Program-made: the position numbers and the translations under genes
Source of the DNA: an uncultured Chloroflexia bacterium
GTDB taxonomy: Bacteria; Chloroflexota; Dehalococcoidia; Dehalococcoidales; RBG-16-60-22
Direction of reading: 5' to 3'
NCBI GenBank assembly: GCA_963727315.1
Contig: CAVSFE010000002.1
Span: 215,560-279,559, forward strand
Length of the DNA stretch: 64,000 bases
Shown here: piece by piece, positions 10,665-63,762 of the stretch
Position numbering within the stretch: the stretch's first letter is position 1
Layout: every line of letters starts with the position of its first letter
The notes under the pieces: model-generated
The model's input: the letters and a program-made list of their open reading frames with translations, nothing else
Database searches by the model: none
Told to the model about the DNA's origin: nothing

Positions 10665-12086
10665 ATGAAATTGCTCTGCGTCCTGCTGCCCCATTTCCCC
10701 TGGCGGTGCGAAGTCCGGAGAAACCCCGACCTCGCCGGCCGCCCGGCATTAGTCGTCCAGTCGAAGGACGTAGCCGGTTCGCCGAAGCTGGTGCTGGACT
10801 GGGCCCCGGAGCTCGATGACCTGCAGCCCGATATGCCCCTCCAGCAGGCGCTGGCACGGCACGGGCAGGCCGCGCTGCTCCCGGCGGACGTGCCCTTTTA
10901 CCGCGCCGCCTTTAATGAAATACTGGATGCCCTGGAGAACATCAGCCCGCTGGTCGAAGAGGCCGACCTCGGCTGCGCATATATCGGCAGCGATGGCCTG
11001 CATCTTATCTACCCGGACGATAGCGCTATCATCGCCGCCGTGCGGGAAGCCGTGCCGGCGGTCTTTATGCCCCGGATGGGAATAGCCGGGAACAAGTTCC
11101 TGGCGTATCTGGCCGCCCGCCGCAGTCCTCCCGGCGGGCACCAGGTATACTCAGGCGATGCCGCCCCCCTCCTTAAAGACCTCCCCTGCGATGTCCTGCC
11201 GGTGTCTTTAAAGAGCCTGAGCAAGCTGCGCGACTTCGGCCTGAACACGCTCGGGCAGGTAAGCGCCCTGCCGCCCGGCCCCTTCCAGTCCCAGTTCGGG
11301 CCGGAGGGTAAAAGGATATGGGAGCTTGCCGGGGGCATCGACGCCACCCCCCTTTATCCCCGCATGATGGAGGCGGCCCGCGAGGAGTCCGCCGCGCTGC
11401 CTTCGGTGACCGTCTCCCTGGAGGCGATACTGTTCACGGTGGAGACGCTCCTACGGCGGGTCTTCGATAGCCTCGCCCGCAGGGGGCTGGGCATCCGCAG
11501 TCTCAACCTGTGGACCCGCACCTGGAACGCCGAGAGCTGGGAGCGCACCATCCGCTTCAAGGAGCCGGCCATGGACCTGAAAAACGCCCTGTCCCGCGTC
11601 AAGCGCACCCTGGAGGACTATCCCCAGCCCGGCCCGGTCGAGCAGCTGGGCATGAGCATTACCGGTCTGGGCTATCCGCGGGGTCGGCAGCGAAGCCTTT
11701 TTTCAGATATGAGGGCTAAAGAGCACCTGGCGGAAGACATCAAGCAGCTGGAGTCGAGGCTGGGCAATCCCCAGATATATAAAGTCAAGGAGGTCGAGCC
11801 GTGGTCGCGGATACCGGAAAGACGCTACGCGCTGACGCCTACAAGCCGGTAAACGCGCCGGAGCCGCTACGGGTGGAGGAAGACGCCGATGGTCTACCGA
11901 TTGCCGTCAGGACGAAGCGGCGGCAGGCCGTCAACTCTATCGAAGACCGCTGGCGACTCGACGACGAATGGTGGCGGGCGGAGCCGGTATCAAGCGATTT
12001 ATTATAATGTCCTGCTCGCCTCCGGCCAGCGCCTGGTGCTCTATAAAGACCTCGTTACGGGTGAATGGTACCAGCAGGAGTATTAG
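10665..12086 (+). pseudogene. imuB: ImuB-like Y-family polymerase homologue, 3-prime end split over three frames as assembled
   Basis: The main ORF MKLLCVLLPHFPW... runs to a stop at 11852. The expected C-terminal region continues in a second frame (YKPVNAPEPLRVEEDADGLPIAV...EDRWRLDDEWWRAEP). It then returns to the first frame (YYNVLLASGQRLVLYKDLVTGEWYQQEY, stop 12086). The gene lies immediately upstream of dnaE2. Confidence 0.75.
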
Positions 12087-12098
12087 GATACTACTGCC

Positions 12099-15000
12099 AT
12101 GTCTTACGCCGAGCTTCACTGCCACAGCTATTATTCCTTCCACGACGGCGCTGCGTCGCTGGAAGAGCTCATGGTGCGCGCCAAAGGCCTCGGCTACCGC
12201 GCCCTAGCCGTCACCGACCACGATAATTTATGCGGGGCGATGTGCTTCGCGCAGCTGGCCAAATCACTGGAGATGCAAGGCATTACCGGCGCGGAACTGA
12301 CGCTGGAAAACGGTTTTCATTTAACCCTGCTGGCTAAAGACGGAACGGGCTATAAAAACCTCTGCCGCCTCATCACCGCCGCCCAGAACTCCGGCGAGCG
12401 CAACGCCCCGGCTCTTTCCCCTGCGCTCCTGCCGGAGCATGCCGAAGGACTCATCGCCCTCTCCGGCTGCCTGCAGGGAGAATTATCGCAGCTGGCAGCT
12501 AAAAATCGCCTGCCCGAGGCCAAAGCTTTAGTAAAGCAATACCTCGACTGGTTCGGTTCAGACAACTACTACATCGAGCTCCAGCAGAACCTGGCCCACG
12601 GCGACACGGCGCGCAACATCGCCCTGCTGAAGCTGGCTAAAGAAACGGGCGCCAAAGCGGTCGCCACCGGCAACGTCCACTACCACGTCAGGGAAAGACA
12701 TCGTTTACAGGACTGCCTGGTGGCGGTCAAGAACCTGAAAAGCCTCGAGGAGACCCACCGCGAAAGGCGCCCCAACTCAGAATACTATCTGCGCCCTGTG
12801 GATGAGCTTAAAGTCCTCTTCAAAGACTGCCCGGAAGCTTTAGAAAACACCCTCAAAATAGCCGAACGCTGTACTCTTGACCTGACGGAGGACTTAAGCT
12901 ATATCTTCCCCGAATACCCCGCGCCGGAAGGGTTCACGCCGCAGACCTACCTGGAAAAGCTCTGCCACGAGGCGGCGGTGCGACGCTACGGTTCCATCAC
13001 CCCGCAGGTAAAAGCCAGGCTGGATGAGGAGTTCGCCCTGATAAAAAAATACAGCCTCGCCGGCTTCCTGCTGATGTACCACGAGGTCATCAAGCTGGGG
13101 CGGGACGTCATGATCGACCTGGGCCTGAGCGACCCGTCCCTGACCGTCGAGGAGAACCCGCCGGGGAGGGGTCGCGGCTCATCGGTGGCTTTACTGGTAG
13201 GCTACCTCATCGGCCTCTCGCACATCGACCCTCTCAAGTATAATCTGTCGTTAGAGCGTTTCCTCCCCGCCGATACCATGACCAACGTGCCGGATATTGA
13301 CCTGGATTTTCCCCGCTCCATCCGCGAGGAGCTCATCCTGCGCACGCACCAGAAGTGGGGCTGGCGGCACGCTGCCCTCGCCGGCACCATCTGCACCTAT
13401 ATGATCAAGGGGGCGGTCAGGGACCTGGGCAAAGCCTTAGGACTGCCGGAGGCGGAAATCGACCAGCTTTCCAAGCAGGCGGACTGGGGCAGCGCCAAAA
13501 AGCTCGGCAGCAAGATGGAGCGCATGCCCAACTTTAAAGATAAGGTAGACGCCCCCGTCTGGCGCGACCTCATCAGCCTGGCGGCCGAGCTGGACGGCTT
13601 TCCCAAGTACACGGGGCAGCACCCCGGCGGTATGATTCTTTCCTCCACCCCCCTCATCGATATCGTGCCCGTCCAGCGGGGGGCTATCGAGGGGCGCTAC
13701 GTCTGCCAGTGGGACAAGGACAGTATCGACGACGCCGGCTTCGTGAAAATCGACTTTTTAGCTCTCGGCGCTTTGTCTCAGCTTCAGGACGCCATCGACC
13801 TTATCAAGGGCCGCACCGGCGAAAGAATCGATATGTCCCGCATCGATTTCGAGGACGCCAAGGTCTACGATATGCTCTGCAAGGGCGATACCATCGGCAT
13901 TTTCCAGGTGGAGTCGGCCGCCCAGATGCAGAACATTACCCGCCTAAAGCCGAGAAATCTGCTGGACATGGCGCACGAAGTGGGCGCCGTCCGGCCCGGC
14001 GTGGGCGTTAACCACGGCGTGCAGGAGTACTTGGCGCGGCGCAGCAAACGCAAGCCCGTAACCTACGACCACCCCCTTGAGCAGCGGGCCCTGGAGCGCA
14101 CCCTGGGCGTGGTCTTGTTCCAGGACCAGGTCAACCAGCTGGCGATAGACGTCGCCGGCTTTGCCCCCAGCGAGGCCGACCGCCTCCGCCGCGCCTTCGG
14201 GCGCAAGCATAACGACGAGCTTATCGAGCAGTACCATCAAAAGTTCCTGGCCGGGGCTAAAGAGCGCGGCGTTGATGAAAAAGCCGCGGAAACGGTCTTT
14301 AAGAAGTTCAACGGCCAGTACATGTTCCCGGAGTCGCACGCGTTCGCCTTCGGGGTAACGGCCTACCAGGCGTCCTGGCTCAAGTATTACTATCCCCTGG
14401 AGTTCTTCGTGGCGATATTTAACCAGCAGCCGATGGGCTTTTATAACCTGGAAACGCTGAAGGAGGACGCCCGGCGGCACGGTATCACGGCGCTGAACCC
14501 GGATATAAATAAGAGCAGCGCCAAATGCACGATAGAAACGGCAGGGGAAGCTCGAAGGGGCGCCAGCCCCTTCGAAAATAATCATTTCCCCCTCTCCCTT
14601 AATGGGAGAGGGCAGGGTGAGGGTGATAAGAAAGCCAGGAATGAACGACACGCGGAGGTCTCACTGGATTCCCGCTTTCGCGGGAATGACGGTACGGGCG
14701 CCGCCCTGCGATTGGGCTTCCTGAACGTCAACGGACTCGGCGAGGTCTTCGCCAAAGCTATCGAGGAGGGGCGGGCAAAACAGGGGGCGTTTAAAACCAT
14801 CGGCGACTTCCTCGAACGCACCGGCGTGCTGGAAGAGGTCGCTTTAAACCTCGCCTCCGCCGGCGCCTTCGACAGCCTCGAGCCCAACCGACGCCAGGTG
14901 AAGTGGGAAATCGGCCTGCGCTACCGTCCCGTCAACTCTCAGCTGCCCCTCCCCCTGCCCGTAGCGCAGGACATGGTAGAGCTGGCCACGCCGACCGACT

Positions 15001-16906: not shown

Positions 16907-16920
16907 ACAGGGCGAGTTCA

Positions 16921-18323
16921 ATGACAGCCCAAAAAACTATTACCGAATCCTCCCGCAAACTTAAAGTAATCCGCGAAGTGGACGTGGTCGTGGTGGGGGG
17001 CGGACCGGGAGGGGTCGCCTCGGCCATCAGCGCGGCGAGAAACGGCGCCAAAACCGTCCTCATCGAAAGATACGGGCACCTCGGCGGCATGGCCACCGGC
17101 GGCCTGATCAATATTTTCCCCAACCTGAGCGATATCAGCGGCAAGCAGCATATCTTCGGGCTCACACAGGAAATCATCGACCGCCTGGACAGGCGCGGCG
17201 GGGCTTCGTATCCCCGTAAAGAGGACTGGGGCACCACCGACCCCAAAGTGGTCGATTACTATCTTAATGCCAATCTCGGTTTTTTCTACGTGCGCAAAGA
17301 CCCCAACCGCGGCGGTAAACAGGCAGTGCTTTATACCGCCGTCATCGACCCCGAGATACTTAAGGACGAGCTCAACGATATGGTGCTGGGGGCAGGGGCG
17401 GAGCTTTTCCTGCATTCCTGGGGCACGCAACCTATCATGGACGGGGATACGGTCAAGGGCGTTATCTTCGAGAGCAAGTCCGGGCGGCAGGCGATCCTGG
17501 GCAAAGTCGTTATCGACGCCACCGGCGACGGCGATATCTTCGTGGCGGCCGGCGCCGACTTCGACGCTACCCTGAACAACAAATACCGCTCCGCCTGGCT
17601 GGCTTTCACTTTCTGGGTGGCCAACGTGGACATTAAAAAATACGAGGACTTCCAGGCTTCGCAGCCGGAAAAACACAAGGCACTGATGGACGAGCTTTTA
17701 AAGCTCGGGCGGCTATCCGCGTTTCTTTAAAGGCGTCCTGGAAAACCAGTCCGGCGTGCTCTGGTACCACTGCATGCAGCCGCAGCCCAACCCCACCGAC
17801 GCCATGGACGTAGAGCAACTGACGCAAATAGATATCAAAGCCAGAAAACGCGCCCTCATCACCCACGATTTCATGAGGAAGAACGTCCCCGGATTTGAGA
17901 AGTGCTTCGTCATGCAGACCGCCCCGCAGCTGGGCACGCAGGGAGGCCGCCGCGTTACCGGAGAATATACGCTTACCCAGGATGACATCGTCGCCGACCG
18001 GGTCTTCGAGGACACGATTGCCGTCCTCGCCAATAACGATTTAGGAGAAATTTCCGCCAGGCACCCGACTCTCTGCGTCCCCTACCGCTGCCTGGTACCC
18101 GAGGAAGATTGAAGGACTGCTCGTTGCCTGCCGGGCTTTCTCCTCGGAGGACAGCATCAACCAGTATTTTAATATCATCCCGCCCTGTCTTTGCTACGGC
18201 CAGGCCGCGGGAACGGCGGCCGCCTTAGCCGTCAAAGCCGGCATCCCGCCGCGAAAAGTGGACTATAAAGCCCTGCAAAGGAGCCTCATCAAACAGGGCG
18301 TGAATCTGCCTAAGAGCAAATAA
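16921..18323 (+). pseudogene. FAD-dependent oxidoreductase paralog, two frame breaks as assembled
   Basis: Collinear with 15470-16906 (VVVVGGGPGGVASAISAARNGAKTVLIERYGHLGGMATGG, IDATGDGD, NVPGFEKCF, YRCLVP, LVACRAFSS). The frame changes near 17712 and 18107. The stop is at 18321-18323. Confidence 0.8.
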
Positions 18324-24805: not shown

Positions 24806-24822
24806 CTATCGCTCTTTAATAA

Positions 24823-26152
24823 TTATCCCTTTTTCCCCTTGGTCGGGTCAGGAAGCTTGCCCGGGCCGAACGAAGAGTAATCGAGGTCGTAAAACTGGCG
24901 GCAGACCGCGAAATAGCCCAGGTGACTGCCCCCCATGACCAGCTTCGCCACCGGTGCGTCGCGGTAATATTTTTCATAATGGTTCTCGCGGATATAGCCG
25001 TAACACCCCATGATTTCCATCCCCTTGAGAATCAGGTCGGCGGCCGTCCTGGTAATCATCGTGTGCACCGCATGTCCCTTAGCCACCATGCTTCTCGTGT
25101 CCCAAGCGCCGTAAATTTCCGGGTGGTCGAACTCATGCGCCAGCTCCAGGAAAGAGGCCCTGCGCCACGGTGATAAACGAGGCTATCTCGCCGATAATCA
25201 TGGCCGCGTCGAGGTGCTGGTTAATCAGTCGACCGCCGGCTACCCTCTGCCCGGTGTAGTCGAGGAGCACGTCGAAGGCGCCCTGGAGTATGCCCGTCAT
25301 ATGCCCTGAGTTGAGGGGGAAAGGAGCGGACGAAGCCGTTTCAAAAATCGACCACGCCACGGGTCCCTTGAGCCCCCACTCCCTCGGCACGCGGACGTTA
25401 TCGAAATACGTCGATGTGTTCCTATCGGCGTGCATGCCGCATTTGACCTCGAATTTGCCGTGGGAGACACCCGGCCAAGGCTCGGGGACGTAGACCAGGG
25501 CGAACGCGTCTTTTCCCAACCTCGGGTCCATATTACAGATAACGCAGTTGAGGTCGGCGATGCCGGCGTTAGACGCCCAGAACTTGTTGCCGTTGATGAC
25601 CCATTCGTCGCCTTCGAGCTTGGCCCGTACCCTTACCGTCTTGCCTTCGTTGGTCAGGTTTTCGATGTCGCAGGCGGACTCGGGCTCGCTCATATTGAAG
25701 CAGGCGGCACGGAGCTCATCCCCGACGAACATCGGGGCGAACTCATCGAGGACGGCCTTGCCCCACGCCTTCGCTTCCGGGGTCGGCGCCGTTAGGTAGG
25801 CCAGGGTCGCCGGCGTCCATCCCCAGTCGGTGACGGCGCCGTGCATACTGATGCCGTAGTCGCCGCGTGCTATCTGCTCCTGCTTCAGGGCGCCCGTAAC
25901 GATAGAAAGCAGCTCGTTGCCGCCGTATTCTTTCGGTATCATATTCTTCTGGCAGCCCAGGTCTACCTGCAGTTTTTTCAGGATGGGATTGATTATTTTT
26001 TCGTGGGTCACATCGTCGTCGATTTTATCGCGGACGGGCAAGATTTCTTTATCGGTGAAATCCGCCCAGAGCTTTTGCATCATGCGCTGCTCTTCGTTCA
26101 CGAAGCATTCCGGGTACTGCAGTTTGTACCACTGGCTGGTCTGGTCTAACAT
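24823..26152 (-). pseudogene. Acyl-CoA dehydrogenase family protein, one frame break as assembled
   Basis: The N-terminal ORF (26152-25133) and the C-terminal ORF (…MVAKGHAVHTMITRTAADLILKGMEIMGCYGYIRENHYEKYYRDA) join if one base is corrected near 25160. There the text reads …FITV/RASFLELAHEFDHPEIYGAWD. Confidence 0.75.
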
Positions 26153-26222: not shown

Positions 26223-28048
26223 CTAACGCCCTTTTTTCAGCAGCTCCGCGCCGGCCAGATTTTCCTTTATCTTTTTTATCAGTGTTCCCGCCAGCCACCC
26301 GGCAAACCAGCCGAGCAAGGGCTTTACCAGGAGCTGTAATATGAAGAGCAATACCTTTAATAGAATCGATTTCCATTTTGAGGGCGGGCTGTTTGATTTC
26401 CCCCTGGAGCCGATAAGTCCGCTAAGCGCCTGGTTGACCACGAGTTTCGTCCGGACGCTCAAGCCCTTTTTAAGTTTCTCCAGGTCGGCCTCGGGCATCG
26501 CCGGCCACGGCGGCTGCGGCTCTCTGGTTTCACTGATTGAGGTCGCCGACGAGCGGAATGATAGGCAGGTAATAGGTATCCTTTCCGTCAACGGGCACGG
26601 TTACGAGGTACGGCGAGCCGGGCTGTTTCAAGCCCGGAGGCCACGGCTCGAAGAGAGGGTTTTCCACGGGCAGGATAAAGTACTTTTGCAGGAACCGCTG
26701 GCAGTTGCGGCGACCCAGGAGGAAATCATGACGCCGGAAGTCCTCGTTTAAAAAACCGCCGAAATGAAAGAGGGAGTTGGAGGCAAGGGCCGGCCATTTT
26801 TCTCTCTGGCTTTCCCGCGCGGTTTTATCTCGGGTGGGCGTGATGACAAAACGACTGAAAACATTCGGGTCGCGGGCGAGCTTCAGCTCATCAATTTTGA
26901 ACTTGGCCTGGGACATCAGGCTTCGGAAAATCGCCCCGGCGACATTGAATAGACCGGGCTCCGCCGTATAATCGGCGCTGACCGGTACCGCATCAGGGAA
27001 AGGGTCGATCATGACGATGGCCCGGGTGGCTTTGTCACCGTCTCTTTCGTTACGCCGCTCCGGCGCCGGCGATTTCCCGGCGGGCGTACTCAAGAGGCTC
27101 GTTGTTCATCACGCCGCCGTCCACCGCCAGGAAAAAGTAGTCGGATGGCGCATTTCCGTCCCAGTCCGGCGGTATTTTTTCGCGCCCGGAGGACGGTACG
27201 GTCCACGCCCGCTCGTTATAGTCCCCGGCGTCCCGCTCGATAATCCGGGGGGCCAGGGCGAAGGGAAAAGCGCCGCTGGCCACGGCCGCCTGCGCCAGCT
27301 TCTTCCAGGCCGTCTTTTCTTTTTCGTCGTGCGGGTCGGGATGGAGCAACACACCTGCGGGAACAGGACCGCTGCGGTTGCCGGCTTCAGGTTTAACAAC
27401 GTCAAACCGGAGGTAATCGGCGTGGTTGGACATCCAGTGCTCGATGACCTTCGGGCCCTGGAAACCGCCCCGGCGATCACCAAGGAAATCGATGGCGTAA
27501 GGCACGCCGCGCAGGTTGGTGACGCAGATGAAAAGGGCAAGCGGGTCGGCGACATAAGCGCGGGGGTTAAGCGGCGGCCGCGCAATCATGGTTTCCTCAG
27601 CCAGATTTTTCAAAAACGAGGAGTCGAGCAGCGAAGTCAATTTTCCCGCTTTTTCTTTGAGGTCGGCGGTGGTGAGCATGGAGGCGATATCGGCTTTGAC
27701 CACCCAGCTCGAGTAAAGCTTGTTCGTTTCATCGTATTTTTCGGGCAGGCGGGCCGGGTTGACGGCGCAGGGGGCTTCGTTAAAGACCACGGCCGCCAGC
27801 GCAGCGACCATACTGCCGGCCGAGGAACCCGATATCGCCCTGAGACGGATGTCGTGCGGCGGGACCTGCCACTGCTCGCGGGGAACGCCCCGGGAAGCCT
27901 CGCTTTCCTTGGCGGCGTACCACAGGTCGATGGCCTCAATGAGAAAATCGACGACGCCGGCCGAATAGGCCCCCGCCGAGACCGCCCCTGCCAGTACCAG
28001 CCCGATTTCAAAAGTTTTTTTATCCTTCCCGGTCACGCTATCTGCCAC
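26223..28048 (-). pseudogene. Patatin-like phospholipase with long C-terminal extension, split into three ORFs as assembled
   Basis: Oxyanion region LAGAVSAGAYSAG, nucleophile GSSAG and catalytic VDGG lie in ORF 28048-27050. The gene continues as ERRNERDG…IDPFPD…FGGFLNEDFRRHDFLLGR (27093-26530) and EPQPPWPAMPEADLEKL… with a hydrophobic tail (26591-26223). Breaks are near 27068 and 26538. Confidence 0.75.
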
Positions 28049-29443: not shown

Positions 29444-30544
29444 ATGAAAGTCAAAGCGGCCATCTGTAACGAACTCGGGAAGCCTTTATCGATGGAGGAA
29501 GTGACTCTGGACCCGCCGGGAAAGGGCGAGGTAAAAATAAGAATGGCGGCGACGGCCATCTGCCACAGCGATATCCACGCCTTCAAGGGGGAGCACGGCG
29601 ATATCCAGCTGCCGGCCATCGCCGGTCACGAGATATGCGGCTACGTCGAGGAAACCGGCGACGGCGTCACCTACGTCAAACCCGGCGATAAAGTGGTCGC
29701 CAGCATCATACCGGAGGGCTGCGGGCAGTGCTACTATTGCCGCATCGGCCTTGGCAGCCAGTGCACCACCAACCGACTCTATCTGATAGGGAAAGGGAAA
29801 TATGTCAATAAAAAAGGCCAGCGCATCACGCAGTACGCCGGCGCCGTGGCCGGCTTCGCCGAATACGCCACCATCCCCGAGGTCAACCTGGTGAAAGTGC
29901 CGGAGGACCTGCCCGTAGACCGGGCGTGCCTGCTCGCCTGCGGGGTTATCTCGGGGTTCGGGGCGGTGCTGTACCGCGCTAAGGTCACGGCCAACAGCAG
30001 CGTCGCCGTCATCGGCTGCGGGGGAGTCGGGCTCAACGCCATCCAGGGGGCGGTCTTTGCCGGGGCTTACCCGGTCATCGCCGTGGACGTGCGCGACAAC
30101 AAGCTGGAAACGCGCTAAAGTCTTCGGCGCGACGCATACGGTCAACGCCAAAACGGAAAAAGACCCCATTAAGAAGGTGCACGAGCTTACCTACGGTCGC
30201 GGGGCGGATACGGTCATCGTGGCGGTGGCGGGCATAGAAATCCTGCGCCAGGGGTTCATGATGTCGGCGCGGGACGGCACTACGCAATATTATCGGGCAC
30301 GGCTTCGGCGAGCAGATGTCCGCTTTCACGCCGCTGGACTTCATGGCGGGCAAAAAGCTCACCGGCAGCGCGATGGGGGCGGTAAGGCTCCGGATAGATA
30401 TCCCCCGCCTGATTGAGCTGTACAGAGTCGGCCGACTCAAGCTGGACGAGCTTATTTCCGGCCACTATCCGCTTCGATAAGATTAACGAGGCGCTGGTAT
30501 CATCGGAAAAGGGCGACGTGATACGCAACGTGATTATGTTTTGA
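29444..30544 (+). pseudogene. Zinc-dependent alcohol dehydrogenase (MDR family), three frame breaks as assembled
   Basis: ICHSDIH, GHEICGYVEETG, CGQCYYC, GCGGVGLNAIQGA. Continues in other frames as AKVFGATHTVNA…, IIGHGFGEQMSAFTP… and DKINEALVSSEKGDVIRNVIMF. Breaks are near 30110, 30285 and 30474. Confidence 0.8.
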
Positions 30545-30758: not shown

Positions 30759-31157
30759 CTAAGTAAAGCCGGTAGTCGTGCCGTACATCCAGCCTTCGAT
30801 GACCTTGCCGTTCTTCAAACGGAAAAGCCAGAGCTCGTTGGCGACGACCTCTTGACCCTTTGCTGGCGGCAGGCCGGGAATTCGCCCGGTAAAATTCTCG
30901 TGGCCGCTATATAAAAACCCGACGAGGTTGCCTTCACCCGTTAGATATTTAATATCAAAGCGGATATCGGAAAATGCCTTCCGCGCGGCGGTGATAAACT
31001 GTTTATGCGCCTCCCGCCCTACAACGTCCGGCAGCGGAGGCGTTAAATGATAGACGACATCGGTGTTTTCAACTTCATCCAGGGCATCGACGTTGCCCTT
31101 AATCCATGCCTCGTTTTCAGCTTTAATAAATTTTTCCGCGAAATTTTTAGTGTTCAT
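30759..31157 (-). CDS. SnoaL-like / NTF2-fold protein (ester-cyclase-like)
   Basis: 132 aa with GGAGG upstream. The pattern (…AWIKGNVDALDEV…DVVYH…GREAHKQFI…LWLFRLKNGKVIEGW) is typical of SnoaL-type polyketide-cyclase-fold proteins. Confidence 0.6.
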   Translation of the reverse strand: MNTKNFAEKFIKAENEAWIKGNVDALDEVENTDVVYHLTPPLPDVVGREAHKQFITAARKAFSDIRFDIKYLTGEGNLVGFLYSGHENFTGRIPGLPPAKGQEVVANELWLFRLKNGKVIEGWMYGTTTGFT

Positions 31158-31348: not shown

Positions 31349-33063
31349 TTGAACAAGGTTGCGGAAATAACGCTGGCTTCCGATGCCCCCGGCGCCACGC
31401 TCTTCATGCTCGGCAACGAAGCCATCGCCCGGGGGGCTATCGAGGCGGGCGTGCAGGTGGTGGCGGCCTATCCCGGCACGCCTTCGAGCGAAATCACCGA
31501 GACGCTGGTGAACAACGCCAAAATCACCGGCATGTACGCCGAGTGGTCGATTAACGAGAAGGTCGCCCTGGAAGTAGCCATGGCCGGCGCCATGAGCGGC
31601 CTGCGCTCGCTGGCGATTATGAAGCATGTCGGCGTGAACGTCGCCCACGACGCCCTGACGTCCGCCAGCTATATGGGACTCGGCGGCCTGGTGCTCATTT
31701 CCGCCGACGACCCCGGCCAGTGGAGCTCGCAGAACGAGCAGGACAACCGCTACATCGCCCGCCAGTGCTATATACCGGTGCTGGAGCCCGCGACCGCGCA
31801 GGAAGGCAAGGACATGATGGTCGATGCCTACCGCCTTTCCGAGGAGTTCGGGCAGATGTTCATGCTGCGCTCGGTGACGCGCATCGGCCACGCCCGCAGC
31901 GACGTCGTGCTGGGCGGGATAGAGGGGCAAAAGCGCCAGGGGAAGTTCACTAAAGACTTCCAAAGGCTGGTGTGCCTGCCGGCCAATTTCCGCGTCAACC
32001 GCCGGCATGGTCATTCAAAGAATGGCGAAAATAAAAGACGTCGTGGACACCCTGCCGTATAACCACATAACGCTTAAGAAAGGCGCCAAATTGGGCGTCA
32101 TCGCCAGCGGCATTTCCTACGGCTACGCCGTGGAGGCCATACGGTGGATGGGACTAGAAGAAAAAATTTCCGTGTTGAAAATAGGTACGCCTTACCCGCT
32201 GCCGGTAAAAATGACGCAGCAGTTTTTAAAGTCCGTGCCGGAGGCGCTGGTGGTCGAGGAGCTTGAGCCTTTTGTCGAGGACGGCGTCAAGGTCATCGCC
32301 AAGGACAGCGATATCAGCGTGAAAATCCACGGCAAGGACGTCATTCCCCTGGCCGGGGAGCTATCGACACGGCAGGTCGCCGAGGCTTTGAGCAAGCTGA
32401 CCGGAGTCAAGCCGCCGATGGATTTCGCGGAGATTGATAAATTAAGAGAAGAAACGGCGGCGCTGTTGCCCTTCCGCCCGCCGACCATGTGCGCCGGCTG
32501 CCCGCACCGGGCTTCCGCCTACGCCATCAATATCGCCATCCGGCGCTACCAGCAAGAGACCGGCATCGAGCCGGTAAAGACCGGCGACATCGGCTGTTAC
32601 GCCCTCTCCGCCAACCCGCCGCTGAACGCGGACGACGTCGCCATCTGCATGGGCGGCGCTTTCGGCCTCGCCAACGGATTCGCCCACGTTCAGGACGCGC
32701 CGGTGGTGGCGCACCTGGGCGATAGCACTTTTTTCCACTCCGGCATCCCGCCGATGATTAACGCCGTCTATAACAAAGCCAACGTGACCATGGTCGTGAT
32801 GGACAACTCGACCACCGGCATGACGGGTTTCCAGCCGCACCCCGGCGCCAGCGGCGACGTGGCTTCGACATAAAAATAGAAGATATCGCCCGCGCCAGCG
32901 GCGTCAAGATGGTGGAGGTCGTTGACGCCTTCGACCTGCCAAAGCTTATCGACGTCCTGGAGAAGGCGATAAAATTTAAAGGGCCTTCGGTCATCGTCGC
33001 CCGCCGGCTCTGCAATATCCTCGACCAGCGGGAGAAACGAAAAGCCGGCGAAAAGACCGTCTC
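31349..33063 (+). pseudogene. iorA: Indolepyruvate/2-oxoacid:ferredoxin oxidoreductase alpha subunit (TPP part), frame breaks as assembled
   Basis: GNEAIARGAIEAGVQVVAAYPGTPSSEI, MCAGCPHRASAY, TGDIGCY, HLGDSTFFHSGIPPMINAVYN, MTGFQPHPG. Frame changes are near 32000 and 32858. A TTG start follows AGGAGG. Confidence 0.8.
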
Positions 33064-33065
33064 CT

Positions 33066-34647
33066 TATGTGGTCGATACCGGAGAAATGCGTGGCGGGCA
33101 GTCCGCCGGCCTGCCAGGCCACCTGCCCCCTGCATATTGATATCCGGGGATATATCGCCCTGATAAAAGAGGGCAAGTTCGACGAGGCGCTGGCGCTCAT
33201 CAAAAAGACCCTGCCCTTCCCCGGCATCATCGGCCGGATCTGCACGCGACCCTGCGAAGGCAAGTGCGTGCGGAGGGAGGTCGAGGAGGCGATAGCCATC
33301 AACGCCCTCAAGCGCGCGGCGACCGAATACGGGAAATATACGGAAGATTACACCATCGCCGCGGAAAAGAAAGAGCGGGTGGCGATTATCGGCGGGGGAC
33401 CGGCCGGCATGATGGCGGCCTACGACCTGCGCAAGGCCGGCTATAAAGTAACTATCTTCGAAGCCCTGGATAAGCTGGGCGGGATGATGGCGGTGGGCAT
33501 CCCCGAGTTCCGGTTGCCGCGGAATATTCTCCAGTGAAGAAACGGATATTATTAAAAAGCTGGGCGTGGAGATAAAGCTCAACACGAGGGTCGGCAAAGA
33601 CGTTAAACTGGCGGATTTGAGGAAAGACTATGACGCCGTTTTTATCGCCGTGGGCGCTCATAAAGGCAGAAGCCTCGGGCATAGAAAATGAGCATGCCAG
33701 CGGCGTTATCGACGGCACGGAGTTTTTATACAAGGTCAACACCGGCGAGAAAATAAAGACCGAAGACAGGGTGGTGGTGGTGGGCGGCGGCAACGTGGCT
33801 GTCGACTGCGCCCGCACCTGCGTGCGGCTGGGCTTTAAAGACGTGAATATCGTCTACCGGCGCTCCAGGGCGGAAATGCCCGCCATCGCCGAGGAAGTGA
33901 CCGAAGCCGAGCACGAAGGCGTCAAACTGACGCTGCTGTCCGGTCCGAGCAAGGTCGTGCTGAAGGGCGGAAAAGTATCAGGGCTCGAATGCATCAAAAT
34001 GAAGCTCGGCGAGCCGGACGCCAGCGGGACGGAGAAGGCCGGAGCCGATTAAGGGCTCGGAGTTCGTTATCGAGACGGGGCTGATTATCTCAGCCGTCGG
34101 TGAAGAGCCCGACCTCGCTTTCATGGGCGGGGACATGGCGGGGGCGGTCGCCGATGGCCATATCAAAGCCGACCCCGTCACGCTCGCCACCGGCATTAAA
34201 GGCGTCTTCGCCGGCGGGGACGCGGTCACCGGGGCGGCCACGGTCATCCAGGCCATGGCGGCGGGCCGAAAAGCCGCCAGGTCCATCGACAAATACTTCA
34301 AGGGCGAGCCGCTGGACAAAGGGCGTGAAGGCGAAGAGGTCTTCGAGAGCAAGCTCATCGTGGATACCTGGAGCATCTACCAGGAACCGAGGGCGGCCAT
34401 GCCGGCGCTGCCCGTCGCCCGGAGAAAAGGCAACTTCAAAGAGGTCGATTTGGGCCTGACGCGGGAGGCGGCCGTAAAAGAGGCGAAACGCTGCCTCTCC
34501 TGCGACTGCCGTATCTGTATCAATCTGCTCGGCTGCCCCGCCCTGATAACCGAAAAAGGCAAGGTGACGATCGATAGCTCCGGGTGCCCGGGGTGCGGGG
34601 TCTGCGCCCAGGTCTGCCCGCACGAAGCGATAAAAGCAGGAGTGTAA
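33066..34647 (+). pseudogene. GltD/NfnB-like NAD(P)H-dependent FeS flavoprotein module ending in a 2x[4Fe-4S] ferredoxin domain, probably contiguous with iorA; several frame breaks
   Basis: EKCVAGSPPACQATCPLHIDIRGYI, GRICTRPCEGKC, VAIIGGGPAGMMAAYDL, VVVVGGGNVAVDCA, GVFAGGDAVTG, then CLSCDCRICINLLGCPAL…GCPGCGVCAQVCPHEAI. Frame changes are near 33065-33082, 33535, 33672 and 34035. Confidence 0.7.
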
Positions 34648-34648: not shown

Positions 34649-35263
34649 ATGGCCGCGAAGAACGAGATTAACATCATCATCTGCGGGGTGGGGGGACAGG
34701 GCGTCGTCCTGGTCTCCGAGCTGCTGGGCAATGCGGCGGTGAGGGGCAAAGTGGCGGTCAAGGGCTCGGAAGTGCTGGGGATGGCGCAGCGGGGAGGCTC
34801 CGTGTTCAGCAACCTGCGGCTGGGCGGCGAGGCCATCGCCCCGATGACCCCGGAAGGCAAATGCGATGTCCTCATCGCCGTGGAGCCATCGGAAGCGTTG
34901 AGAAATATTCAATACCTCGCGAAAAACAGCGTGGTCGTCCTCAACACGACGACCGTCCTGCCGTACACCGTCTACCTGGGCAAGAGCGGGTATCCGTCCC
35001 AGGACGAAATAATCGAAAAGCTCCGTAAAGTCACCGACCGCATTATCACGCTGGATGCCAGCGGGCTGGCAAAGCAGGCGGGGAGCCTGCAGGCGGCCAA
35101 CGTGGTCATGCTGGGGGCGCTGTTCGGCACGGGACTCATGCCCGTCAAAGAGGAGACGGCCAAGGAAGCGATACTGGCGCGCTTCAAGGGAAAGGTCGGC
35201 GAGATAAATATCAAAGCCTTCGACCTTGGCTATGAATACATCCAGAAGGCACTCAAGGGGTAG
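34649..35263 (+). CDS. iorB: Indolepyruvate oxidoreductase beta subunit
   Basis: 204 aa. NIIICGVGGQGVVLVSELLG…SEVLGMAQRGGSV, the gamma-type POR domain. Starts 1 nt after the preceding stop. Confidence 0.85.
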   Translation: MAAKNEINIIICGVGGQGVVLVSELLGNAAVRGKVAVKGSEVLGMAQRGGSVFSNLRLGGEAIAPMTPEGKCDVLIAVEPSEALRNIQYLAKNSVVVLNTTTVLPYTVYLGKSGYPSQDEIIEKLRKVTDRIITLDASGLAKQAGSLQAANVVMLGALFGTGLMPVKEETAKEAILARFKGKVGEINIKAFDLGYEYIQKALKG

Positions 35264-35953: not shown

Positions 35954-36777
35954 GTGAAGTGCCCGCACTGCCAGGCTGAAAATCCCGAAGGTTCAGAATA
36001 TTGTAGAACATGTGGACAATCGCTGCGGCTTGAAACAGTGTGTCCCAAATGTGGGCATAGTAACCTGCATGATAGTGCGTTCTGCAACAAGTGTGGTCAA
36101 CCCCTGGCAGAAAAGGAACTACTACTCGCCAAACCGTCTTCCCCCTGCCCGCCTCCTTTGCCGGCGGCCGCTATCAGGTCAAGAAGTTTTTAGGAGAAGG
36201 CGGCAAGAAAAAAGTCTACCTCGCCCACGATACCGTACTAGATAGAGATGTCGCCTTCGCCCTCATCAAGACCGAGAAGCTGGACGAAGTCGCCCGCACC
36301 CGCATCAAGCGCGAGGCCCGCGCCATGGGAAAACTCGGTGTAAAACGGCCTGGTAGCGGCACCGCCGAGGATATGACGGCAGCTTATTTGGACAATGCCT
36401 ATCTTGAGGTTGCTGTATTGGTCGGGCATCAGCGGTCTGCCGAGCTGCTATTGAAACGTTTGGTCAAATGCAGCCAGTATAATCTTGAAGGTTCATGCGT
36501 GGCCCGCAATCTGGGCGGGGCGGCAGCACTCTTGGGTAAATATGGAGAAGCCCGCAAATATTACCAAGAAGCCATTAGAATCTGCACGGAGATGAGGTTT
36601 CGCCCGGAGCTTGCTCTCTCTCGCCTCCAGCTTGCCGAGCTTTTGCTGGAGCACTACCCGGATGAGAAAAAGGAAGCATTAGAGCACCTGGACTTTGCCA
36701 TCAGGGAGTTCCGCGAGATGAAGATGCAGCCCTCGCTGGAGCGTGCCTTACGCCATAAGGATATACTGAAAGCATAG
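35954..36777 (+). pseudogene. Relic of a large Zn-ribbon / Ser-Thr kinase / TPR regulator: kinase truncated after the N-lobe, one frame break
   Basis: Double zinc ribbon (CPHCQ…CRTCG, CPKCG…CNKCG). After a break near 36120 the text reads FAGGRYQVKKFLGEGGKKKVYLAHD…VAFALIK (Gly-loop and Lys of a kinase). No HRD/DFG follows, and the sequence jumps to a TPR-like tail (…LLGKYGEARKYYQEAIRIC…). Confidence 0.55.
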
Positions 36778-41651: not shown

Positions 41652-41728
41652 TGGTGGGCGGTAGAGGACTTGAACCACTGACCTCCGCGATGTCAACGCG
41701 GCGCTCTAACCAGCTGAGCTAACCGCCC
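41652..41728 (-). tRNA. tRNA-Val (anticodon GAC)
   Basis: 77 nt. Acceptor GGGCGGT/ACCGCCC, D arm GCTC-AGCTGGTTA-GAGC, anticodon stem CCGCG/CGCGG with loop TTGACAT, T arm AGTGG-TTCAAGT-CCTCT (one U-U mismatch), encoded CCA. Confidence 0.9.
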
Positions 41729-41872
41729 GTAACTCTAGTTATTCTACTAGATACCTGTTTTCCCGTCAACCACTTACAGATGCCATTTTTACCCCGATGT
41801 GATAAAATACTCTCCAAACATGTCACACGCGGCGGAAACCGGCTACCGGGATAGACCTGGAGGACGGCATAA

Positions 41873-42955
41873 ATGAATGCGCTCAAACGCGCGGGGACAG
41901 GGTTTTTGAGCTTCCTGCTGCTGATATCCCTGTCCGTCTTCGGCATGATGTTTCTCGTCAATAGCACCGCGCTTAAACCCGATTTCGTCGCGGCGCAGGT
42001 GGACAAGCTCGATATGACCGCCGCGGCGCGTGACTACGCCGATGAGTCCATCAGCGAGGAATCGCCGCAGGACGTGACATTCCTGAAAGAAGCCGTTTAC
42101 CATGTTATCGCCGACCAGGAACCCTGGCTAAAAGAGCAGCTGGACCATGCTGTCTACATCGGCTACGACTATTTATTGGGGAAAAGCGAGCACCTTGAAA
42201 TCAATATTCCCCTGGACGATTTGAAGACAAACATCAGGGACAGCCTGTGGCAGACGCTGCAAAAATTCCTTGCCCGGGAGGCATCGTCGGTCCCGCCCGA
42301 CCTGCTCATGCCCTATATCGACGAACATTACCAGGAGATAGTTCCCCTGATTCCCTCGCAGTATTTGCCGCCGGGGATGGTCGGCCTGACCGGCCCGGCG
42401 CTCAGGAACTACCTCGACACGCACTATGATGAGGTCACGGCCATGCTCCAGAAGGCTTTCATGGTGCCGGGCGTATCCGGCCTGATCCTCGGGCAGATTC
42501 AGCCGTATTTCGACCGCTATTACGACGATTTCATCGCTGATTTTCCCGACGCCATAACCGAGAACGATTTACCCGCGGATGTCACGGACGGCCTGCAGAT
42601 GGCCAGGAGCAGCATCGGCTACTTCTATATCGTTTACTACGCCCTGATTGCCTTTATGGTCTTGCTGGTCGCCGGCATCATCCTGATAAATCGCAATATC
42701 AAAGAAATCTGCCGGGCCATGGGAATAGTCTTTCTCATTTACGGGGTCGCGGAATTTGCCGGCGTCCTTTTCGTCAGATATTTCGATTTTATCCGGTTTA
42801 TTCCGGACCTGCCGTCTTCGCTGAAGGGTTGGCTCCCCGGCGTCATCAAAGACTCCCTGCTACCGCTGCAATGGTTCAGCCTAGGCATATTGATTCTCGG
42901 GGGAGTCCTTATCGCCGTTTTTATTGTCTATAAGCCGCGGCCGGTGCAGGAATAG
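41873..42955 (+). CDS. Hypothetical membrane protein (N-terminal anchor, large external domain, C-terminal TM bundle)
   Basis: 360 aa with coding-type GC3. One TM near the N-terminus and about 4 TM at the C-terminus. No motif recognised. Confidence 0.55.
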   Translation: MNALKRAGTGFLSFLLLISLSVFGMMFLVNSTALKPDFVAAQVDKLDMTAAARDYADESISEESPQDVTFLKEAVYHVIADQEPWLKEQLDHAVYIGYDYLLGKSEHLEINIPLDDLKTNIRDSLWQTLQKFLAREASSVPPDLLMPYIDEHYQEIVPLIPSQYLPPGMVGLTGPALRNYLDTHYDEVTAMLQKAFMVPGVSGLILGQIQPYFDRYYDDFIADFPDAITENDLPADVTDGLQMARSSIGYFYIVYYALIAFMVLLVAGIILINRNIKEICRAMGIVFLIYGVAEFAGVLFVRYFDFIRFIPDLPSSLKGWLPGVIKDSLLPLQWFSLGILILGGVLIAVFIVYKPRPVQE

Positions 42956-42967
42956 TATATCGTAATT

Positions 42968-43648
42968 TTACGACGCTCTCTTTTTCCTCCTTAGCCACCA
43001 CCCTATTCCTCCCAGGATAATTGCCCCCACGGCTGTGGCGATGGCGCAAAACAGCGCCACATCGAACCAGAACCCCTGCGGAAAGAGCATGATGAGATAA
43101 TCTCTAGTGGGGTCCAATATCCAGAAATCGTTGGCGAAGCTAAGCAGGTGAAACTGTAGAAAAAATTGGTCGAAGTCGAACGCGATCACCAGCCCCAGCG
43201 CCAGCATGAATAACAGCGTAAGGCCGCCCCCGAAAAACAGTCCCCCGCCCAGCCGCCGTTTATCCCGCCACCAGAATAAACAGGCCCCGATGAAGACCAG
43301 GGCGTAGACTCCCGTCCCCAGCAATATTTTGTATACCAGCCGGAAAAGCCCCTTGACGTCTTTGAGGTGGGCGACCTCGCGTTCGTTAAAAAGCGTAAAA
43401 GGCTGGCCGTCCTTCTCCACGGTAATGTTGATATATTCCTCGTCGTTATTGAAGTAGCCGATGAGTCCCCGGGCGGCTTTGTCGAGCTCCGCTGGCGCCA
43501 GTCCCGTCACCTGGTCGACATCGTATTTCTCGAAGCCGTATTTATAAAGCCAGATGCAGTTCGCCGCGGCGCTCACACTGGCCGTCAGGAGCAGAATCGG
43601 CAGGCAGAGCGAGAACAGCCATTGGGCGATAGTCTTGAGGATAGTCAT
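42968..43648 (-). CDS. TIGR01906/DUF1461-family integral membrane protein (Lit-like)
   Basis: FNEREVAHLKDVKGLF…FLQFHLLSFANDFWILDPTRDYLIMLFPQGFW matches my recollection of the DUF1461 pattern. ATG 43648 is chosen because the longer ORF would overlap the dnaE start. Confidence 0.55.
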   Translation of the reverse strand: MTILKTIAQWLFSLCLPILLLTASVSAAANCIWLYKYGFEKYDVDQVTGLAPAELDKAARGLIGYFNNDEEYINITVEKDGQPFTLFNEREVAHLKDVKGLFRLVYKILLGTGVYALVFIGACLFWWRDKRRLGGGLFFGGGLTLLFMLALGLVIAFDFDQFFLQFHLLSFANDFWILDPTRDYLIMLFPQGFWFDVALFCAIATAVGAIILGGIGWWLRRKKRAS

Positions 43649-43708: not shown

Positions 43709-47223
<3,515 letters not shown>

Positions 47224-54051: not shown

Positions 54052-54230
54052 TTTTCCCCTTTCAACCTTTCAATTTAACCATAATTCACGAGAAAAATCA
54101 ATTTAAACGAGCTGGCCACAGCTTGCGCGCCTCATGGACAGTATCGTACTGCGTATTATATAATTAAACCATCACCAGAAACCCCGACGGATAATATAAA
54201 CCGCGGTGGGGTTTGAAAGACAGGTTTTTT

Positions 54231-55051
54231 ATGTCAGGTGATGTAACTTTTGCTTTTCTCTTGACCCTGCTTGCCGGGTTGTCCACCGGCATCGGCAGCG
54301 CTATCGCCTATTTCATGCGCAAGCCCGGGTCTACCAGCATGTCGCTGATTCTCGGCTTTTCCGCCGGCGTCATGCTCTATATCTCCTTCGCCGAGTTGCT
54401 TCATCAATCGTTTGATAAAGTCGGTTTCGCTACCGGCAACATCGGCTTTTTCATCGGCATTGCCTTCATCGCCGTGCTGGATATCCTCATCCCCCACGAG
54501 TACAAGCAGGAGCATATCGACGAACCGCCCGGCGCCGCCGTCAGCGCTGACGAATTTCCCCGCTCGGTATCGACTACGGACAAAGGGACAGGCGCTCGCA
54601 CCTCATGCACGCCGGCATGCTCACGGCTATCGGCATCGCTATTCACAACTTCCCTGAAGGGCTGGCCGTCTTCAGCAGCGGCATTACCGGCGACCGCACT
54701 TTCGGCTTCCTCGTGGCCATCGCCATCGCCCTCCATAATATCCCGGAAGGCATCAGCGTATCGATACCTATCTGGGAAGCGACCGGCTCCCGCAACCGGG
54801 CTTTTCTCTATTCCTTTGCCGCCGGCCTGGCCGAGCCCATCGGCGCCGCTATCGGTTATGCCTTCCTCTTCAATTTTCTCACGCCCACCGTGATATATTC
54901 GCTGCTGGCCTTCGCCGCCGGCATCATGGTCTATATCAGCCTCGACGAGCTCCTGCCTACTGCCCACCTCTACGGCAAAGAGCACCTGGTAATCATCGGG
55001 GTCATCGCCGGTATGGTTATCATGGCCCTCAGCATCTACTTCATTCGCTAG
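54231..55051 (+). pseudogene. zupT: ZIP-family zinc transporter ZupT, one frame break as assembled
   Basis: The N-terminal part is …GFSAGVMLYISFAELL…IPHE. The C-terminal part is GIAIHNFPEGLAVF…AIALHNIPEGISV…AGIMVYISLDELLP, in another frame. The break lies between 54551 and 54600. Confidence 0.8.
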
Positions 55052-57335: not shown

Positions 57336-58278
57336 GTGGCTGAAGAGATTGCCCCGAGGGAAGTCTACGGCAAAACGCTGGTGGAACTGGGCCGGGAAAA
57401 TCCCGGATATCGTGGTGCTGGACGCCGACCTCAAGCCTTCGACGATGACCTATTATTTCGAAAAGGAGTTCCCCGAACGTTTCTTCGAGGTCGGCATCGC
57501 CGAGCAGAACATGATCGGGATTGCCTGCGGGCTGGCGGCTTCGGGCAAGATACCGTTCGCGAGCACCTTCGCCGTCTTTGCTCCGGGGCGCTGCTTCGAC
57601 CAGATTCGTGTTTCGGTGGCCCAGGCGAAGCTCAACGTGAAAATAGTGGTCACCCATGCCGGCCTGACCGTCGGCGAGGACGGCGCTTCCCACCAGGCTC
57701 TGGAAGACCTGGCGCTTATCTGCTCCCTGCCCGGCTTTACCGTTATCGTCCCGGCGGACGCCGTCGAGACCGCCCAGGCCATCAGGGCCGTGGCCGCGCA
57801 TAACGGCCCCTGCTACGTCAGACTGTGCCGACCCAAGCTGCCAGTTATTTATGACAATAACTACAAATTTCAAATCGGCCAAGCGGTGGAAATGAGGCCG
57901 GGCAGCGATGCCACGATAATAGCTATCGGCGTCATGGTGTCGCCGGCGCTGGAAGCCGCGAATCAGCTGGCGCAGGAACGCATTAATTGCCGGGTCATTA
58001 ATATGTCCACGTTAAAGCCGATAGACGAAACGGCTATCGTCAAAGCCGCCCGTGAGACCGGCGCTATCGTTACCGCCGAGGAGCACCAGGAGCACGGCGG
58101 ACTTGGCAGTATCGTGGCGCGGATTACCGCCAGGTGTTGTCCGGTGCCCATGGAGTTCGTCGCGGTTAAAGACGTTTTCGGGCAGTCCGGCAAGCCGGCG
58201 GAGCTCCTGGAAAGGTACGGGCTGACTTCCAAAGATATAGTCGCCGCCGTGCGTGAGGCGATAAAGAGAAAGGGCTAG
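57336..58278 (+). pseudogene. Transketolase, C-terminal (pyrimidine-binding) subunit, one frame break near the 5-prime end as assembled
   Basis: A GTG start 1 nt after the previous stop gives MAEEIAPREVYGKTLVELGRENP. After one extra base near 57398 it continues DIVVLDADL…FFEVGIAEQNMIGIA…HAGLTVGEDGASHQ. Confidence 0.85.
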
Positions 58279-60632: not shown

Positions 60633-60648
60633 CATCCACCGATAATCC

Positions 60649-61155: not shown

Positions 61156-61189
61156 ATCGAACCCCCCGACTATTTTTCTTAATTTTATA

Positions 61190-62008: not shown

Positions 62009-62043
62009 GAAAAATCTCCTATCCTGATATCTCACCTAATATA

Positions 62044-62889
62044 TCATATCGTGGCAGCCAGATAAATTTTCATGCCCTGCGCCTGGCAGCGCCGGTACAG
62101 TTCTTCGGCTCGGGATTTTTCTTTAAATACGGCAAATAGAGCCGGGCCCGAGCCGGCGAGGTAAACATCGCAAACGCCGACTTTAATGAGGCTTACATTA
62201 AAGAGGAGCAGTCCGGAATAGACATGGAAGGCGATGTTTTTAAAAACGTTAAACAGCAGAGAGGCATCTGGTATTTTACCTTCCTTGATGGCGGCCGCCA
62301 GGCGGTCAGTGGCCGAGCCATCGGTGAAATGAGAAGCATTAAGGTTCGCATACATCCTGGCCGTCTTGAACGGGCTGACCTTGAAATCCGGGACGATGAC
62401 CAGAATCCACAACTCTTGGAGAGGGGGGAGGGGTGTAATTATCTCGCCCCGGCCTTCTGCCAGGGCGGTGCCGCCGTTTAAAAAGAAAGGCACATCCGAA
62501 CCCAGCCGCATTGCCAGTTCCTTGAGTTTCTCATACGAAAGATCAAGTCCCCAGAAATCGTTAAGTCCCTTCAACAAAGCGGCGGCGTCGGAGCTATCGC
62601 CGCCGAGGCCGGACAGCAGGGGGATGCGTTTTTCCAGCGATACCGCCGCCCCATGCCTACCGCCGGCGGCTTTCTGTAAAAGCTTGATAGCCTTGCTTAA
62701 AAGGCTGTTTTTCGCCGACCACCCCGGCATATCGCACTGGAAGGAAATATGCTTGCCCGATTCAATATGTAAGGTGTCGTAAAGGTCGATGGTCTGGAGC
62801 ACGCTGCGGATTTCGTGATAGCCGTCCGGGCGTTTCCGCAGGACCTCTAAAGTCAGGTTTATCTTGGCGGGGGCATTAACGGTAAACAC
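62044..62889 (-). CDS. ispE: 4-diphosphocytidyl-2-C-methyl-D-erythritol kinase
   Basis: APAKINLTLEVL, GHMP-kinase motif PLLSGLGGDSSDAAA, GSGPALFAVF. Confidence 0.85.
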   Translation of the reverse strand: MFTVNAPAKINLTLEVLRKRPDGYHEIRSVLQTIDLYDTLHIESGKHISFQCDMPGWSAKNSLLSKAIKLLQKAAGGRHGAAVSLEKRIPLLSGLGGDSSDAAALLKGLNDFWGLDLSYEKLKELAMRLGSDVPFFLNGGTALAEGRGEIITPLPPLQELWILVIVPDFKVSPFKTARMYANLNASHFTDGSATDRLAAAIKEGKIPDASLLFNVFKNIAFHVYSGLLLFNVSLIKVGVCDVYLAGSGPALFAVFKEKSRAEELYRRCQAQGMKIYLAATI

Positions 62890-62890
62890 T

Positions 62891-63762
62891 CTATTTCACC
62901 ACCCGATTATAGGTGCGCCATAGGTCCGCCCAGTCTTCGAGAGAAAGGGTCTCCGCTCTGCGCTTCGCGTCGATGCCCGCTTTTGCCAGCATGGCGGCGA
63001 CTTCTTCCTTGGGCAGGCCGAGGCTATGCGAGAGAGAATTTGAAATTTGCTTGCGGGCCGCCGAAAACCCGGCGCGCACCAGCTTAAAGAAACCGTCCGC
63101 GTCGTCCACCTCGACGGGGGGACGGGGGTAAACCTCTATCTTTACGACGGCGGAATCGACCTCCGGCGGGGGAAAAAGGCGGCGGCGGGGACATCAGCGA
63201 CTATTTCCGGTCGACCGTAAAACTGGACGGCGATGCTGAGCAGGCTGCGCTGTCCCGCCCCAGCCACGATGGTCTCCGCCACCTCTTTCTGCACCATTAA
63301 CACCATTAGCTCTGGTTTAACGGGCGCTTCGAGGAAATGGCGCAGGACGGGCGAGGTGATATAGTACGGCAGGTTGGCCACGACCTTGTAAGAGCGCAGC
63401 GCCGGCGGGAAGGAAGGGGCGCGCCCCCGCAATAATGCAGCGGGGTCGGTGCCGAGGACATCCTGGTTCAGAATAACGACGTTATCATAAGGCAATATCT
63501 TCGCTAGGATCTCAGCGAGGCGTTCGTCCAGCTCGATGGCGATGACCCAACCGGCGCGCCTCGCCAGCTCGGCGGTCAGGATACCCAGTCCGGGCCCGAC
63601 CTCGATAACCGTATCCTGAAGAGACAGCGCGGCCGCCTCCACGATAGTCTCCAGCACGGCCCCATCGACGAGGAAATTCTGTCCCAATCCCTTTTTCGCC
63701 CTGATGCCGTAGCGGCGCAGCAGGGCCTTCGTCTGACTTAAAAGCGAGGGGCGGCTATTCAT
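62891..63762 (-). pseudogene. rsmA: 16S rRNA (adenine1518/1519-N6)-dimethyltransferase RsmA/KsgA, one frame break as assembled
   Basis: GLGQNFL, VIEVGPGLGILT, VANLPYYITSP. A C-run (plus-strand G-run 63168-63172) is one base short, splitting FFPPPEVDSAVVKIE… from the N-terminal ORF. Confidence 0.85.

Follow-up and report, generated by a model that had tools for sequence, protein, structure and literature searches.

Why are so many genes in one short stretch of the genome of an uncultured bacterium split between reading frames? In the 64-kb stretch of DNA analyzed here (the window; 57% G+C), 23 single-base frame breaks are found in 12 genes of the deposited sequence. The breaks are very probably consensus errors of a long-read-type metagenome assembly of Dehalococcoidales, not mutations of the organism, and we put the probability of this at about 0.88. 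We rest this reading on sequence comparisons: the lesions are single-base insertions or deletions (indels) only, none of them is a nonsense codon, constraint on the broken genes is unrelaxed, insertions outnumber deletions by 19 to 4, and the window lies in a long public contig. An initial annotation of this DNA had left the cause open between artefact and decay, with patchy polishing and strain-mixture consensus errors among the candidates, and the same lines of evidence strongly support the artefact side. While the consensus was being built, single bases would have been wrongly added (19) or dropped (4), at gene calling each error would then break up a functional gene, and we infer that the reads would not support the extra bases.

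Frame breaks in the window

Breaks were detected from Pfam coordinates, where consecutive parts of one family fell in adjacent open reading frames (ORFs) in different frames. FAD-dependent oxidoreductase 2 (FADox2), acyl-CoA dehydrogenase (ACAD), Zn-dependent alcohol dehydrogenase (ADH), the iorA-gltD fusion (ior), MMPL, dnaE, zupT, and rsmA all have their Pfam family split across frames. Furthermore, ORFs of related contigs, which had been fetched with dnaE and the rebuilt ior protein, were aligned to the window by tblastn, and one intact homolog matched between two and seven window frames (dnaE three, FADox2 three, ADH four, ior seven, and the patatin-like gene three, the last with a 602-aa homolog). 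Exact break positions were taken from nucleotide alignments to the relatives, in which the window alone showed the single-base gaps, with 1-12 relatives compared per gene. Two of the four deletions were placed exactly and the other two -1 breaks were bracketed only. The broken genes are as follows.

11873..12086, + strand: conserved 70-aa gene between imuB and dnaE2; +1 insertion at ~11994
16921..18323, + strand: FAD-dependent oxidoreductase 2; +1 insertions at 17706 (C) and 18098 (C)
24826..26152, - strand: acyl-CoA dehydrogenase; +1 insertion at 25162, Pfam domains in two ORFs
26226..28048, - strand: patatin-like phospholipase, ~600 aa; +1 insertions at 27058 and ~26533
29444..30544, + strand: Zn-dependent alcohol dehydrogenase; +1 insertions at 30113, 30285, and 30471
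31349..34647, + strand: iorA-gltD-like fusion, 1097 aa; insertions at 32007, 33061, 33078, 33531, 33677, and 34026, deletion after 32864
35960..36777, + strand: apparent relic of a large Ser/Thr kinase; -1 break within 36113-36117, internal loss of ~1040 aa
39121..41623, + strand: MMPL transporter; +1 insertion at ~40249 (CTT[G]ATA)
43709..47223, + strand: dnaE (Pol III alpha); +1 insertions at 44358 (A) and 46453 (G)
54213..55051, + strand: zupT, ZIP-family zinc transporter; -1 break within 54551-54600
57336..58278, + strand: transketolase C-terminal subunit (tktC); +1 insertion at 57405 (CCC[G]GAT)
62894..63798, - strand: rsmA (ksgA); 1-nt deletion at 63168 (C6 to C5 on the coding strand)

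By Pfam, tblastn, and DNA alignments, breaks are present at essentially all the coordinates listed in the initial annotation. One ior site, given there as 33.07-33.08 kb, is a real break and consists of two separate insertions (33061 and 33078).

The most damaged gene is ior, with seven indels and seven frame segments, and its corrected ORF has no internal stop. The fusion is a single intact ORF in 21 related metagenome ORFs that aligned over the full length at 75-90% identity. The protein is an indolepyruvate:ferredoxin oxidoreductase alpha-type thiamine pyrophosphate enzyme fused to a GltD-like FAD/NAD(P) and Fe-S module, and a separate beta subunit (34649-35263) follows it. In ADH, relatives matched four frame segments, and the three insertions were private to the window against nine relatives; the ADH of the closest relative (L163, 92.8% identical in nucleotides) is intact, encodes 365 aa, and lacks all three.

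In dnaE, the Pfam domains are spread over three ORFs. There were 38 relatives that span the breaks, 34 of which reach all three frames, and 44358 and 46453 are the sole indels private to the window. PF12831 of FADox2 is likewise split over three ORFs, and no other indels were private to the window against six relatives. For the patatin-like gene, residues 4-336, 337-510, and 512-601 of a homolog (P0338, 73% identical) matched three successive frames. A contig that is 95% identical over 2.5 kb (L165) lacks exactly base 25162 of ACAD, and one that is 94.4% identical over 1637 nt (L164) differs in rsmA by a single gap at 63168; the Pfam family RrnaAD is matched from 3 to 178 in one frame and from 175 to 260 in the other.

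The remaining genes each have one break. The two MMPL domains are in overlapping ORFs in different frames, and the protein reads on across them (...VRHPL / IFALPIIVLLL...); no close homolog was compared for this gene. In zupT, the C-terminal half and the N-terminal part of the Pfam family Zip are in different frames. In tktC, the N-terminus ends with ...VELGRENP in one frame and continues with DIVVLDADL... in the next, the match to Transket_pyr starts from profile position 17, and the corrected ORF contains no internal stop.

Eight genes were rebuilt by removing the inserted bases and padding one deletion, and all of them gave full-length ORFs with no internal stop codons. The claim that the damage consists of indels only is thus borne out, and there was no nonsense codon among the 23 lesions.

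We also looked for breaks that might have been missed. Pfam searches of small ORFs at 21.7-22.8, 35.2-35.5, 47.2, 48.4, and 1.4-2.1 kb revealed none, and neither did the comparison of the genes at 47-54 kb with the ORFs of relatives. No further breaks could be read from a plot of codon usage by frame, which was too noisy. A compensating indel pair at 30873/30889, seen against L163, was rejected as an alignment effect since the protein is normal against relatives.

Sequence context of the breaks

The inserted base was G or C in 15 of 18 insertions. Five of 18 insertions touched an identical neighboring base, compared with 43% for random insertions. A true homopolymer (a run of at least 5) was found only at the rsmA break. 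With this exception, the breaks are thus not indels in runs, as would be seen with homopolymer-type nanopore or high-fidelity (HiFi) read errors.

The contexts also bear on whether the indels could be real and bypassed during expression, through programmed +1 ribosomal frameshifting, transcriptional slippage, or RNA editing. In favor of such a bypass, most breaks share the +1 direction, and past every break the frame stays open. However, no motif was shared across 20 break-site contexts, neither a stop nor a slippery heptamer was found at the break sites, and four breaks need the opposite shift. No conserved shift site is shared with the relatives, which encode these proteins in one frame. Programmed +1 frameshifting is known from prfB. 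The window genes resemble prfB in that a +1 shift is needed for read-through and the downstream frame is open; unlike prfB, the breaks have no conserved shift site, the relatives have no shift, many unrelated genes are involved, and some breaks are -1. If the extra bases were truly in the DNA of the population and tolerated through frequent +1 recoding or correction at the transcript level, about a quarter of the genes, dnaE included, would be expressed across frameshifts; we regard this as hardly credible.

Selective constraint and intact relatives

Across 21 intact relatives, 418 sites of ior are invariant, and the window has 2 private substitutions at these sites; the range of the relatives themselves was 0-17. 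For ADH there were 4 at 184 invariant sites, which is inside the range of intact relatives. On this measure the broken genes ior and ADH are under unrelaxed constraint. The corrected proteins share at most 90% (ior) and at most 96% (ADH) identity with the intact relatives.

The housekeeping genes dnaE (broken twice), the transketolase subunit, and rsmA are affected, and they are intact in every relative examined. Comparison with close relatives had been proposed as a check, and in it contigs that are 93-95% identical in DNA are intact at the break sites, and their coding sequence differs from that of the window by exactly the one gap. The combination of mixed lesion types and raised nonsynonymous change that marks genuine pseudogenes was not found, the kinase relic excepted. 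The earlier argument that decay would not be expected to affect dnaE, tkt, and rsmA, or to avoid nonsense mutations, holds.

These results bear on the possibility that all of the breaks are genuine, that is, a massive recent pseudogenization in a hypermutator or reductive lineage in which second copies might rescue function. The frameshifts do stand in the deposited public record, and the window has an intact error-prone imuB-dnaE2 cassette. On the other hand, about 23% of the genes, dnaE included, would be inactivated, the constraint is unrelaxed with not a single nonsense lesion, and all relatives, some of them 93-95% identical in DNA, carry none of these breaks. Indels that arise naturally in bacteria tend to be deletions and to be associated with repeats, and the insertion bias and non-repeat contexts in the window are contrary to this. 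Hypermutation through the imuB-dnaE2 cassette was considered as a cause and ruled out by the intact constraint and the essential genes affected.

Genuine pseudogenes have accumulated in reductive or host-restricted genomes such as those of Mycobacterium leprae and Sodalis, where, as in the window, many genes are interrupted by frameshifts and are still recognizable. Unlike those genomes, the window has no nonsense codons, no truncations by insertion sequences, and no raised private substitutions; core replication and metabolic genes are affected, and the indels are biased to insertions. We consider it very improbable that all of the breaks are genuine, and a second intact copy of the genes elsewhere, as raised in the initial annotation, need not be assumed.

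Distribution of the breaks

Long genes such as dnaE2 are unbroken, and it had been argued that 40 kb of neighboring coding sequence would not have escaped a uniform error. We placed 23 breaks at random over the 58.3 kb of coding sequence in the window. The breaks affect 12 genes, while 17.3 were expected (12 or fewer, P=0.003); seven breaks in one gene had P=0.0008, and ten breaks within 4 kb had P=0.00015. ADH and ior account for the entire excess: their 4.8 kb of coding sequence has 10 indels (2.1 per kb, ~8.6 times the background). Elsewhere, 13 breaks are spread over 53.5 kb (0.24 per kb, ~1 per 4 kb), and they fit a uniform distribution (P=0.32-0.92). At the background rate, a 3.3-kb gene stays unbroken with a probability of ~0.45, and therefore the intact dnaE2, ccoNOP, and glg genes need no special explanation. 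The argument against uniform error was thus mostly wrong, as outside ADH-ior the breaks fit a uniform rate. If the breaks are consensus errors, those outside the hot spot would have arisen roughly uniformly at ~1 per 4 kb, and which genes were affected would be mostly a matter of length and luck.

The ADH-ior hot spot

The hot spot spans 29.4-34.6 kb, and 9 of its 10 indels are +1 insertions outside runs. For the 13 insertions with enough relatives in the alignment, we asked whether the inserted base equals the relatives' allele at an adjacent column. It did so in 10, compared with a matching fraction of 0.43 when random bases were inserted and realigned in the same way (P about 0.014). Examples of such matches are ACG/C, CCG/C, CTC/G, and GAT/A-CCG. 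Within ADH-ior the match was 8 of 9, in a subset that was picked after the data had been seen. A related test, of whether the two possible corrections at an insertion are synonymous, was only weakly positive (10 of 18 vs 0.355, P=0.065).

This tendency of the inserted base to match an alternative allele suggests a pile-up of mixed haplotypes rather than plain read noise. Reads of two or more closely related haplotypes may have piled up over ADH-ior, and at a substitution that differs between the haplotypes the consensus could have kept both alleles side by side, giving an extra base. The earlier idea of a strain mixture thus gains suggestive support from the allele matching. A mixed-strain consensus artefact is our best guess for the hot spot; the sequence suggests it and does not establish it.

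The kinase relic and the inverted block

The Ser/Thr kinase gene at 35960-36777 looks like a genuine gene remnant, unlike the other breaks. Residues 3-51 and 59-143 of one homolog (P0002) matched different frames, and residues 1180-1272 of another (P0001) matched 36496-36774. Of a 1476-aa homolog, the ORF pair of ~300 aa keeps residues 3-143, with the zinc-ribbon and the first kinase lobe, and of a 1272-aa homolog it keeps the last 93 aa; the ~1040 residues between them are gone.

In three related contigs (L087, L082, and L085), ADH, ior, and iorB are directly followed by FADox2, FADox1, and dnaE2 in reverse orientation. Compared with this order, the block at ~18.3-35.3 kb of the window is inverted, and it holds ~11 kb (cco, ABC transporter, ACAD, and patatin) that was unseen in the fetched stretches of those contigs. 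The kinase relic is at the right edge of the inverted block, and the hot spot is at an edge of the inverted segment. Either a real rearrangement or a misassembly could account for this arrangement.

These features raise the possibility of a mixed origin, in which uniform consensus errors are joined by genuine recent inactivation across ADH, ior, and the kinase (29.4-36.8 kb). It is favored by the roughly eight-fold local excess of indels, by the adjoining kinase, which appears to be a true relic with a large internal loss, and by the position of the region at the edge of the segment that is inverted relative to related contigs. Against it, private substitutions at invariant sites are not in excess in ior, and both ADH and ior are free of nonsense codons. 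The nine +1 insertions outside runs are of the same type as the background errors and unlike the natural spectrum of slippage and deletion, and the inserted bases match alternative alleles in eight of nine cases. We think that such a mixed origin is unlikely.

The source contig and same-strain sequences

The closest relatives of the window genes are from uncultured Dehalococcoidales (Chloroflexota); a dnaE fragment had at most 91% amino acid identity with contigs of metagenome-assembled genomes (MAGs) of this order, and none of the GTDB species representatives was identical. Intact and truncated ORFs of the window had exact matches in a single NCBI/ENA contig of 1,559,876 bp. The truncated ORFs found there include those of ADH (224 aa), ior (237 aa), FADox2 (269 aa), MMPL (400 aa), and dnaE (227 aa), and thus the frameshifts are already in the public record. 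For an uncultured lineage, a contig of megabase length suggests a long-read-type assembly.

Run ERR10755944 yielded a 1397-bp Logan contig (L081) that matches 41703-43099 at 100% identity and spans no break site. The same population was therefore sequenced in ERR10755944, and its reads could test the break sites. We searched for a second same-strain copy across a break with ~25 exact window proteins and found no Logan source except for one 360-aa protein.

Comparison with known assembly errors

In long-read MAGs, genes split by frameshifts have been documented, especially at coverage below ~40-fold and in soil data (PMC9262707, PMC13087279, 10.1101/2021.08.23.457338). Such split genes are the target of IDEEL-type tests and of frameshift correctors such as proovframe (PMC9262707, PMC13087279, 10.1101/2021.08.23.457338). 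The window is similar to nanopore and PacBio assemblies and MAGs with residual indel errors: it has single-base indels in genes that are otherwise conserved, essential genes are affected, the contig is of megabase scale and from an uncultured organism, and the breaks are roughly uniform outside one region. Its rate of ~39 indels per 100 kb of coding sequence is also in keeping with long-read assembly errors.

Several observations weigh against consensus errors as the full explanation or set the window apart from known cases. The window has mostly insertions outside homopolymers, which differ from the classical nanopore homopolymer deletions (PMC9262707), and homopolymer indels are what the cited nanopore literature stresses. 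The 4.8-kb stretch with an eight-fold excess and the tendency of inserted bases to equal alternative alleles are likewise unlike known long-read errors, and the allele test itself has a post hoc subset and a weak synonymous version, as described above. L081 is the sole independent same-strain sequence found, and no break lies inside it. Moreover, the apparently genuine kinase relic adjoins the hot spot, which leaves a small chance of some real decay nearby.

imuB and the 70-aa gene

The initial annotation placed two breaks in imuB, at 11.84 and 11.99 kb. The gene is intact according to homolog alignments:

10665..11852, + strand: imuB, intact

All 42 homologs (365-402 aa) align in a single frame, with their last residue at 11849, directly ahead of the window stop at 11850-11852; most of them have 391-402 aa and cover the gene over its full length from 10665. 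The supposed break at 11.84 kb is therefore the natural stop of the gene. The one at 11.99 kb is real (~11994), and it is located in the separate 70-aa gene between imuB and dnaE2, not in imuB. The 70-aa product of a related contig (L167, 7209-7421) matched two stretches in successive frames, 11873-11992 and 11997-12083, with one extra base in the DNA alignment. Pfam gave no match for the two ORFs that carry the halves of this gene. Its motif is ...EDRWR(I/L)DDEWWRAE...YYNVLLASGQRLVLYKDL..GEWY.QEY. In L167 the gene is also between imuB and dnaE2 and is followed by a DUF3795 gene, which the window does not have. Within the imuB-dnaE2 mutagenesis cassette of Dehalococcoidales, the 70-aa gene may act as a partner that has had no name so far.

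Other features of the window

The window contains two tRNA genes. The tRNA-Val(GAC) at 41652-41728 is the left end of the synteny common to most dnaE-bearing relatives, and upstream of it (28-41.6 kb) the gene order varies among lineages. The other is a tRNA-Lys(CTT) at 2227-2302. The intergenic region between the ABC-2 permease and ACAD (24809-24817) is 48 nt shorter than in L165 and L166 (~94-95% identical), which is ordinary non-coding length variation.

Implications

The breaks hold no biological novelty and are of little biological importance. They are an instance of the familiar residual-indel problem, with a somewhat unusual profile of insertions outside homopolymers and a local excess. 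The finding is useful as a warning about the public record, and it also illustrates one way in which polishing can fail. The signature, non-homopolymer insertions that often double a polymorphic site together with a local hot spot, may help those who build polishers for strain-mixed metagenomes. Indel errors in the 1.56-Mb public contig probably number several hundred, and gene calling would turn about a quarter of its genes into apparent fragments or pseudogenes. Such miscalled genes would distort completeness scores, pangenome counts, and claims of gene loss in this lineage.

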